A DNA stretch of 6,296 nucleotides from Candidatus Fraserbacteria bacterium (GCA_947085185.1 CAMTVK010000010.1:1-6296); one strand, 5' to 3'; shown: positions 1 through 3,000, counted from the stretch's first letter. A program made the numbers.

Positions 1-3000
1 AAGGATGTAGAGCTTTATGGTCAAGTATGCACTCTTATCGTTGGGTGTAGTAGGGCTGCTGGTGCTGGGGGAGGGGCTCGTGCCGCAGCACCCTGGGGCT
101 AGAGGCCAGCAAGAGCGGTTTGTTGTGCGCGTGCCTGAGGACTTTTCTACTATCCAAGCAGCCATTGACGCAGTGGCCGAAGGGGGCACGGTGCTCATCG
201 GGCCAGGCTTATATAAAGAGAGCTTAGTTATCACGAAAAGCCTGCGCCTGATGGGCTCAAGCCGAGAGCAAGTCCGCATCTACAGCATAGATGACCAAAA
301 ACCAGTCGTCTATGCGAGCTCTCGATCTCTCCTGCAGCTCTTTCTCCAAGGGCTCACCATCACGAGAGAACAGCTCCCGAACCCAAACCTTCCTCCTTCT
401 TTCATCCCTCCAGGAACTGGCATCTTCCTTGGGGGTCCCATCCAGGCCACCTTGCGGCAACTCACCGTGACAAACCAGATTGGCGGAGTGGTCGTCTTCC
501 CCTTGATAGAATACAACGAAGAGCTTTTGTACTTCCGATCTCAAGCCGTCCTAGAAGAGGTATTCTTGGCTCACAATGCGGGAGCAGTGGTTGCTCACTC
601 CGCACACGTGATCATCGTGCGCTCCACTATCACTGATAACGAAGCTGGCCTTATGGTGGATAGCGTATATCTCACCCACAGCACGGTGTGCAAGAATCGT
701 TTCTGGGGGATCGAGCTGAGACTGCCGTCGTCGGCGTTTGGCCCTCAGTATATGGGGGCTTTGCAGAGCAACGAGATCTCCGAGAACGGCGTGGGCGTGA
801 TCCTCGGCGTGATGTCCGAGGAGGCAGCGGGGAGCTGGCTGCTGATGAATGAGAACAAGATCTTCCGCAACCAAGAGTATGGGGTTATGATCCTGAAGAG
901 GGCATGTCCCACGTCTTTTCCGGATCCTGAGCTGGCCCTTGGGAGGGAGAGCGCCCTCATCAGGATCTTTGGCGGGAATAATGAGCTGTATGGCAACTTC
1001 AAAGCCGACCTCTGCCCACCCGACCATCCCTGGCCGCCGGGGTTCCGAAAGTAGTGAGGGAGAGCTATAAAAATTTTGGCTGGGAGAGGAGGATTCGAAC
1101 CCCCACAAGCAGGTCCAGAGCCTGCTGTCCTACCGTTAGACGATCTCCCAGAGCGCTTTTATCATAGCGGAGAGCGCCCGCCTTGTCAAGCGCAGGACTT
1201 GACAGCGCTCCCTCTCTGAGAGTACGCTACAGTATGATTTGCAGCATGACCGGCTACGGCCACGCCCAATCCCAAAGCGCTGCGGAGACGATCACCGTCT
1301 CCATCAAGACGCTCAATCATAAATATCTTGACGTCAAAATTTTCGGGCTGGAAGCCCACCCCGCCCTCGAACTCCAAGTCCAAGATCTGCTCGGAAAAGC
1401 CTTCTCCCGCGGACGCGTCGAAGCCCACATCGAGATCACACGATGCGGGCTCGCTCCCTTGGCTATCAATACGGAGATCGCTCGTGCTTACGTAGAAGCC
1501 TTGCGCCAGCTCAGTCGGGAGCTTCAGCTCCCTGACAATCTTTCTCTCGATACGCTCTTGAAGCTTGAGGGCGTCTTGCAGCGTTCCGAAGAGCCCGAGA
1601 CAGCGCTCTGGGAGCGCCTTGAGCCCGTCTTCCAAGAAGCGATTGCCCAAGTGCGCGCAAGCCGCCAGCGCGAGGGCCAGCTTTTGGCTGATGAGCTTGA
1701 GCAAATTCTCGCGCTTCTTGCGGAGAAGCTCGCCCAGGTCGAGCGCAGTGCGCTCACCGTGAAGGAGCTCTACAGAGAGCGCCTCTGGGAGCGCATCCGC
1801 GAGCTGATCCAAAACACAGGGGAGCTGGACGAGGGGCGCCTCGAGATGGAAGTGGCGCTCTTGGCGGAGCGCTCAGATATTACGGAAGAGATCGCACGTC
1901 TGAAGATGCACCTCCAAGCTGCCCGGAACGCTATAGTGGGGCCAGAGCCCGCCGGACGGCTCCTAGATTTCTTAGCCCAAGAGCTCGCTCGCGAGGCCAA
2001 TACGATCTCTGCGAAAGCTAAAGATGCCCACATCGTCACGAGTGTTTTGGAGATGAAGGCTCTGATCGAGAAATTTCGCGAGCAAGCCCGCAACGTCGAG
2101 TGAAGAGTATGGGCGTCTTTTTCGTGATCTGCGGCCCATCGGGAGCTGGCAAGACAACCGTACTCTCTCGCGTGCGCAAGAGATTTCCCGATTTGGTCTA
2201 TGTCCCGTCGTACACGAGCCGCCCCCCACGAAGCTCAAGAGAACTGAAAGCCGGGCGCTATCGCTTTATCTCTAAAGAAGAGTTTGAGCGCTGCATTCGT
2301 CGGGGGGATCTTCTCGAATATGCTCTTTACGCGGGAAACTATTACGGCACTCCACGATCTGAAGTGCAGCACTTACTCAAGTCTGGGTGCGACGTGCTTA
2401 AGGAAGCTGACGTGCAGGGGGTGCGCCAGTTACGTCGGCGTCGCTTGGGCGGGCGGCTCGTGGCGATCTTTATCGTGCCGCCTTCTTTGGAAGAGCTTGA
2501 AGTTCGACTGGACAAGCGCGGCACCGAAAGCCCCGCAGCGCGGCGCCGTCGCTTAGAGAGGGCTCTCGATGAGCTGGGCGCGCTCGATCTGTTCGATTAT
2601 ATCGTGATCAATCGTCGGATTGCTCAGAGCGTTGAGAGACTGAGCGCGATCATCCGGGCTGAACGCTCCCTCTAGCAGCTTGCGCTGCTTTTAGGGCCGA
2701 CGCTCACGGAGCCCGTTCGACAAGCTTAGCTTCTAGGGCCGGCAGTATTTATCAGCGATCTGATAGGCGTCCATGGCGCTTGCGACCGCAGCCGCGCCCA
2801 GGCAAATCGGTGCCAACTCTTCCACCCGTTTTTCACCCCGCCGGTACAGACTTGCCACGCTCGAACTCTTATAATCGCTCATGCCAAGACCAAAGAGACC
2901 AAGGAGGTTTCTATGGCAAGGAAAGCTGTTCTGGCATTGGTCTTCTTGTTCGCCCTCACGGGGATCTTCTCGTACGGACAGCAAGGGCTCAAGCCCAGTG

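Follow-up and report, generated by a model that had tools for sequence, protein, structure and literature searches.

The question raised by this locus is whether a whole bacterial phylum makes its RNA polymerase without omega. Omega/Rpb6 is the sole small polymerase subunit common to all three domains, and in E. coli its gene, rpoZ, is found in the order gmk-rpoZ-spoT. The window, that is, the whole stretch of DNA analysed, is contig C10 (6,296 bases) of a genome (G000, the source genome) belonging to Candidatus Bipolaricaulota (Acetothermia), which comprises 1.72 Mb in 32 contigs and is 96.8% complete. The window contains yicC and gmk, followed by a spacer in the position where rpoZ would be expected:

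1077..1150, minus strand: tRNA-Gln (CTG), upstream of yicC, identified by ARAGORN and by Rfam RF00005 (59.7 bits)
1234..2103, plus strand: yicC (YicC-like endoribonuclease), 289 aa from the ATG at 1234; PF03755 (4.5e-37) and PF08340 (4e-37)
2100..2675, plus strand: gmk (guanylate kinase), 191 aa; PF00625 (1.4e-32); 4-nt overlap with the yicC stop
2676..2912: spacer of 237 nt, the slot of rpoZ in E. coli and many other bacteria, with no omega-like frame
2773-2874, plus strand: ORF of 33 aa (ATG) inside the spacer
2780-3022, plus strand: ORF of 80 aa (TTG), overlapping the gene at 2913 out of frame
2881-3009, plus strand: ORF of 42 aa that begins in the spacer
2733..2882, minus strand: ORF of 49 codons (ATG) in the spacer, with no Pfam family and no Shine-Dalgarno sequence by eye
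Spacer, minus strand: ORFs of 36 aa (GTG) and 83 aa (a TTG extension of the 49-codon ORF)
2913..4055, plus strand: secreted repeat protein of 380 aa that by eye resembles a beta-propeller; strong AAGGAGG site

The YicC and guanylate kinase genes have Pfam matches above cut-off, and the start assigned to the former is supported by its relatives, which begin MIRSMTGYG. Coordinates and Pfam matches thus bear out the arrangement described in an earlier note on this DNA, yicC-gmk, then 237 nt, then an unrelated gene; the protein encoded at 2913..4055 matches no Pfam family at E<=0.001 and is unrelated to RNA polymerase. The same note had stated that the gap holds no forward ORF with a start, which is wrong given the three plus-strand ORFs of 33, 80 and 42 aa, and that the minus strand holds only the 49-codon ORF, unlike omega; the unlikeness stands, the word only does not, as ORFs of 36 and 83 aa are also present there. 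None of the six spacer ORFs (plus strand, 33, 42 and 80 aa; minus strand, 36, 49 and 83 aa) is omega-like, and the 49-codon one is probably not a gene. Neither a promoter-like nor a terminator-like site was identified between 2676 and 2912, nor any Rfam family. The spacer DNA has no counterpart in genomes of the same genus, where other genes lie 3' of gmk. The latter gene is present in 58 of 61 phylum genomes, and at 30 gmk loci of the phylum its downstream neighbours are acpS, HU, an S1-domain gene or unrelated genes, with a small omega-like ORF in none of the 30.

The profile of the omega/Rpb6 family, PF01192, was searched in six frames. In the source genome the best match reaches 12.5 bits (cut-off 26, E 0.29) at C3:15466-15525; it lies opposite an ORF for a 405-aa membrane protein and is a chance match. 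No genome of the phylum gave a match over the cut-off, first among 101 and then among 184, so that the absence reported by the earlier note for this genome and 25 others of the phylum is upheld on a larger set. The 184 genomes, all of them MAGs, range from 0.9 to 3.7 Mb; 71 are at least 90% complete and two are single-contig genomes (1.70 and 1.32 Mb), G001 (99% complete) and G002 (96%). Among bacterial and archaeal controls the profile scores above cut-off in 14 of 14, and TIGR00690, which has no match in the source genome, matches only 9 of these 14 controls. Ten weak PF01192 matches in the phylum, in frames of 35-180 aa, were inspected; they correspond to RuvC, a YggS-like protein and random frames, and are due to chance.

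Five more genomes, reached through other loci, were searched with PF01192: one Solirubrobacterales, one Armatimonadota, two Chloroflexota and one further member of the phylum. Omega is present in the first two (51.5 and 71.5 bits), and none was found by this profile in either Chloroflexota genome or in the additional phylum member. Because this profile does detect omega in MAGs from other phyla, MAG quality is ruled out as the cause of its absence here.

A single genome of the 184, G137, from the same genus as the source genome, approaches the cut-off (23 bits against 26, E 1.4e-4). The match is a 45-codon frame reading '...PRYGLVLILAKRVREIADGAQ' and sits in the leader of a sigma-70 gene, where an invariant CCTCC block is the ribosome-binding site of that gene read on the other strand. 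All 13 genomes of the genus keep the leader DNA (C2:142417-142549 in the source genome), and between its conserved blocks the relatives carry stops and frame-breaking indels; the stretch is therefore conserved as DNA and not as a gene. About 0.03 such matches are expected by chance in 184 genomes. We read the match as chance, with a relic as the lesser possibility, and flag it as unexplained. A weak match in another genome, G067, belongs to an unrelated locus.

More sensitive searches were also without a candidate. An HMM built from 114 proteobacterial omegas and run without filters gave a best E of 1.7 against 10,522 ORFs of the source genome and of 9.2 against 54,120 six-frame segments of this genome and G002. 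Following the approach of a recent preprint to Elusimicrobiota (PMC13192885), the two omegas from Armatimonadota and Actinomycetota served as surrogate queries, with a best E of 1.9, and a homologue search that started from E. coli omega yielded nothing beyond near-identical sequences of enterobacteria. No omega candidate emerged from a screen by position between syntenic anchors.

Small ORFs conserved between two orders were collected by tblastn (E<=0.01), and 295 of 934 in the source genome have a counterpart in G002, which belongs to another order. A Pfam scan of 150 and 59 of the G002 counterparts identified no Rpb6; the proteins that it named are ribosomal proteins, GreA, NusB, SecE/G and similar. 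When all 10,522 ORFs of 45-200 aa were screened again (E 1e-3 and half coverage), the only additions were shadow frames and a single DUF-like protein. The unknowns that look real comprise several membrane proteins and a protein from an ECF sigma / anti-sigma operon, both judged by context, and a family of 62 aa. The operon protein (95 aa, C2:156613-156900) was rejected, being encoded third in an ECF sigma / zf-HC2 anti-sigma operon in both the source genome and G002.

A single query identified the 62-aa family (C17:33172-33360) in 29 of 61 genomes; it usually precedes a gene for a small membrane protein. It is the sole leftover family that was folded, and its predicted structure is simply a hairpin of two helices (pLDDT 91.5); the 50 Foldseek rows contain no omega chain. 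Its likeness to the omega profile is a faint one of 14 N-terminal residues (hhalign probability 8.6%, control 100%), and its own profile matches only designed coiled coils and Dps among PDB sequences. This family was rejected as omega.

The largest subunit was considered as a possible carrier of a fused omega, the alternative named by the earlier note, and no such fusion was found. The beta' of the source genome (rpoC, 1,650 aa) starts and ends like that of E. coli, so omega is not fused to it; PF01192 has no match in the beta' frame and no omega-like segment is present at either terminus. It is thus confirmed that no recognisable omega exists in the source genome or in the 184 genomes of the phylum, neither 3' of gmk nor fused to the termini of beta'.

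The same note had suggested that an unusually long beta' helps the polymerase to work without omega. The extra length consists of ordinary lineage-specific insertions at surface sites: 133 aa after E. coli residues 148-163 (by alignment to E. coli), a region that bears an insertion in Thermus as well; 49 aa after residue 849; and about 58-60 aa between residues 1293 and 1303, corresponding to residues 1504-1571 of the source protein. An SI3-like insert in the trigger loop is present as in E. coli. The C-terminal insertion, alone among these, looks peculiar to the phylum: it is kept in G002 and G105 and absent from the four outside genomes checked, which include an Actinomycetota genome, an Armatimonadota genome and the Chloroflexota genome G102. 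As the last of these is also omega-less, the insertion is no feature common to omega-less phyla, and the suggestion of help from a long beta' is left unsupported. Some MAGs labelled Thermotogaceae, Caldisericota and others share the gene order of the phylum and the same beta', and one of them is the same genome as G013 of the phylum.

From these sequence comparisons it appears probable, by a modest measure, that the common ancestor of the phylum lost rpoZ and that the core enzyme is alpha2-beta-beta' without a canonical omega. After a loss in the common ancestor of Bipolaricaulota, beta' would fold and the core would assemble without the omega 'latch', as in E. coli rpoZ deletion strains. The slot 3' of gmk would have been reshuffled since, being occupied by acpS in many other families and by varied genes within the genus. 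Possible helpers, named here as speculation, might be general chaperones, the phylum-specific C-terminal insertion of beta' or a zinc-ribbon protein encoded before rpoC.

A missing match alone would not separate true loss from an omega that has become unrecognisable. The latter would have diverged beyond the reach of Pfam, TIGRFAM, the custom profiles and the conservation screen; it could be a helical protein that is short, evolves quickly and has its gene at a distance from gmk. Such an omega is possible but considered rather unlikely. Omega is short and variable, which makes a false negative a real risk, and the legend of Fig. 1A in PMC13192885 allows that absences may be of this kind. Precedents are found in Table S1 and the legend of Fig. 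S1 of the same preprint: omega was recovered in 2 of 2 Elusimicrobiota, solely by BLASTp with a surrogate query, and a Leptospira candidate was proposed from synteny and predicted fold. Table S1 also records omega in four other Spirochaetota. The screens described above rest on similarity between orders, which a fast-evolving omega would escape; folding covered one unknown family, and about 640 small ORFs of the source genome (934 minus 295) have no counterpart in G002. However, PF01192 recognises omega/Rpb6 in all 14 bacterial and archaeal controls and in none of the 184 genomes here, the weak matches (ten frames inspected) recur at no single locus across families, and synteny gave nothing.

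The polymerase genes have an unusual layout in this phylum. In the source genome rpoA is located on C16, rpoB on C2 and rpoC on C7, and the unlinked state of the last two, already pointed out in the earlier note, is general, as they are adjacent in 0 of 61 phylum genomes; where a single contig carries both, the distances between them are 48, 503 and 672 kb. They are adjacent in the Dehalococcoidia genome G101 and in the Actinomycetota genome. The rplKAJL-rpoBC locus is called universally conserved in the abstract of a 2026 paper, and a literature search for non-adjacent rpoB and rpoC returned only plastid or unrelated work. The gene that precedes rpoC in the source genome is the following:

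C7:92980-93213: FmdB-family zinc-ribbon gene, 77 aa, 21 nt upstream of rpoC

The FmdB-type identity proposed for this 77-aa gene by the earlier note holds, with TIGR02605 matching at 57.5 bits in the source genome and 59.9 bits in G002 (cut-off 31.3); PF09723 matches the G002 orthologue at 54.4 bits (cut-off 34.4). The N-terminus contains two CxxC motifs, 17 residues apart, and C8, C11, C29 and C32 are invariant. The profile was found in 57 of 61 phylum genomes.

It is doubtful, although worth setting out, that this zinc-ribbon protein is a lineage-specific partner or assembly aid of the polymerase that took over part of the role of omega. The position of the gene argues for it: it is on the same strand as rpoC and no more than 800 nt upstream in 50 of 61 genomes (no more than 200 nt in 41), 26 of the 30 inspected loci have it in front of rpoC, and in the source genome, with its gap of 21 nt, a promoter-like site lies upstream of the pair. 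In G006, of the same genus, the order is yicC-gmk-FmdB-rpoC, which puts the FmdB gene in the usual slot of rpoZ. The ribbon folds confidently (pLDDT 81-87), an invariant YKGSGFYTTxYRR motif is predicted to be disordered, as expected of a partner-binding motif, and there is a weak, sub-threshold likeness to RNA polymerase subunit P / Rpb12 and to RbpA. Against this, none of the 4 genomes from family f2 (88-94% complete), which are likewise without omega, was found to have the gene; homologues occur in Actinomycetota and Armatimonadota genomes that also possess a canonical omega; none of 44 loci outside the phylum has rpoC within 3 kb; and operon neighbours often do not bind one another. The likeness is of the degree that zinc ribbons show in general (Z<=3.5, Foldseek E>=0.04, 21 bits against 89): fold searches gave no match at E<=0.001 or Z>=5 and returned only generic ribbons, and the subunit P model NF001607 scores 21.3 bits (cut-off 89) with the G002 orthologue and has no match at E<=0.1 in the source protein. 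No relevant literature was found joining the FmdB zinc ribbon to RNA polymerase.

A still more elaborate reading, which we regard as improbable, would combine these elements: an omega-less polymerase whose beta' gene has been freed from rpoB and is co-transcribed with FmdB, the latter being a subunit or assembly factor and a counterpart in role (ancestry not implied) of the archaeal and eukaryotic zinc-ribbon subunits, together with the phylum-specific C-terminal insertion of beta'. Finally, that omega is present in the organisms and missing from the assemblies by binning, gaps or the unrecovered 3% of the source genome is extremely improbable: this genome is 96.8% complete in 32 contigs and the window is a 6.3-kb contig ending in a repeat, but a single-copy gene of ordinary composition would not vanish every time from 184 genomes, 71 of them at least 90% complete and two single-contig (1.70 and 1.32 Mb).

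Lineages truly without omega show what purpose the beta' 'latch' serves and by what means it can be replaced. The argument from ppGpp site 1 matters mainly for Proteobacteria. The peculiarities of the polymerase genes are the most useful leads in this phylum; with its unlinked rpoB and rpoC, its zinc-ribbon gene and its beta' C-terminal insertion, this polymerase is worth heterologous expression.

The earlier note had also held that the finding would overturn the ubiquity of omega, and it does not. Omega is called ubiquitous in the abstract of PMC13192885 (Khitiri et al., bioRxiv 2026) and is placed in almost all sequenced genomes of bacteria by its main text, but Table S1 of the same preprint already lists absences, with omega recorded as not found in any of four Chloroflexota, four Patescibacteriota and two Leptospiria, and the first of these absences was seen again in our two Chloroflexota genomes. 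No rule is overturned, because exceptions had been noted and true absence is unproven. Bipolaricaulota are outside the four phyla examined in that preprint and are not in its Table S1, and no paper was found that pairs them with rpoZ; they are therefore one more phylum in a category that has been described before. The present six-frame search of 184 genomes adds a whole phylum to the apparently omega-less groups in print.

The closest known cases are Chloroflexota, Patescibacteriota and Leptospiria, which like Bipolaricaulota have a normal set of alpha, beta and beta' and no omega by InterPro/Pfam in the tabulated data of PMC13192885. Chloroflexota are free-living, and the absence was reproduced in 2 of 2 genomes. 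Two differences were identified: rpoB and rpoC are unlinked in Bipolaricaulota whereas they are adjacent in the Dehalococcoidia genome, and the Bipolaricaulota beta' carries the C-terminal insertion that G102 lacks. The second case is that of extremely reduced endosymbionts, which retain alpha, beta, beta' and sigma only and, as here, have no omega gene, according to the abstract of PMC8321222. Their genomes are far smaller than the 0.9-3.7 Mb of Bipolaricaulota, which in contrast keep gmk, yicC, greA, nusB, ECF sigma factors and others. The third case is the polymerase of the E. coli rpoZ deletion, a working core without omega such as the one proposed here; this is a laboratory mutant with reduced processivity, whereas in Bipolaricaulota the condition would be natural and ancient.

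The last comparison concerns archaeal RpoP, eukaryotic Rpb12 and actinobacterial RbpA, which are small CxxC...CxxC zinc ribbons located on RNA polymerase and resemble the FmdB protein in motif. The matches to them are weak (4qiw_P, E 0.0021; 5xog_L, E 0.0043; RbpA, Z 3.4; Rpb12, Z 2.9), far below family thresholds and tied with those to MCM and ribosomal zinc ribbons. Unlike these three, the protein encoded before rpoC belongs fully to the FmdB family (TIGR02605), which is widespread in omega-bearing bacteria.

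The FmdB-rpoC pair, in which a gene for an FmdB-family zinc-ribbon protein lies upstream of rpoC, is kept in 50 of 61 genomes of the phylum, the FmdB gene being found in none of the four genomes of family f2. In the genome under study (G000) the protein has 77 aa, its gene lies 21 nt from rpoC, and the pair comprises:

C7:92980-93213 (extracted locus L044:6981-7214), FmdB-family zinc-ribbon gene
C7:93235-98187, rpoC

The same Bipolaricaulota-type pair was identified in MAG records titled Caldisericota, Thermotogaceae, Neomarinimicrobiota or Thermotoga sp. (loci L161, L163, L166, L168, L174, L178, L186 and L191). 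The beta' encoded in these eight loci is 62-69% identical to that of G000, and the positions of rpoB and rpoC are identical in the genome of L163 and in G013, a genome of the phylum. The taxon titles of these MAGs are probably mislabelled.

The beta' of G000 carries an insertion of about 58-65 residues, roughly 80 residues ahead of the C-terminus:

residues 1504-1571 (L044:11745-11948), beta' insertion

G002 and G105 share this conserved insertion; the genomes checked from Chloroflexota, Actinomycetota and Armatimonadota lack it. Small alpha/beta modules elsewhere in beta' are, by eye, similar to it in sequence.

The gene 3' of gmk varies even inside the genus (loci L015-L021): in three genomes a secreted protein of 437 aa is encoded there, in G000 the repeat protein, and in G006 gmk is followed by FmdB-rpoC. 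A RemA-like gene is retained between yicC and gmk in G049, another genome of the phylum. The contig bearing the gmk of G000 ends in a repeat:

window 6067-6296, 63-nt repeat, 3.7 copies with 98% matches, within the minus-strand ORF 5580-6296

It encodes a series of 21-residue units (VSQLEVAVTKLAEAQARTEER) at the N-terminal end of a protein whose frame continues past the end of the contig, and the repeat probably explains why the contig stops there.

Two other features were identified in G000:

C17:33172-33360 and C7:139701-140006 (also loci L258-L286), acidic helical-hairpin protein genes
C2:142417-142549 (L294:1018-1150; also L287:1435-1572), conserved leader DNA of a sigma-70 gene

The hairpin protein (50-62 aa, MAYV[ST]KK[DE]L...) matches no known family. 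A small membrane-protein gene comes next in many loci, and in G019 the hairpin gene (C52:1530-1682) is immediately behind a second FmdB copy (C52:1271-1483). In a single genome, G137, one frame of the sigma-70 leader looks like the omega helix-2 motif, with a score of 23 bits; in relatives this frame is broken.

Finally, rpoB is separated from rpoC and unlinked to it throughout the phylum, the two being adjacent in none of the 61 genomes:

G000, C2, about 44324-47700, minus strand, rpoB
G002, C1 1,136,091-1,139,516, rpoB
G002, C1 635,782 onward, rpoC

Where one contig carries both, they lie 48, 503 and 672 kb apart. The rplKAJL-rpoBC locus is described as universally conserved in the abstract of a 2026 study.
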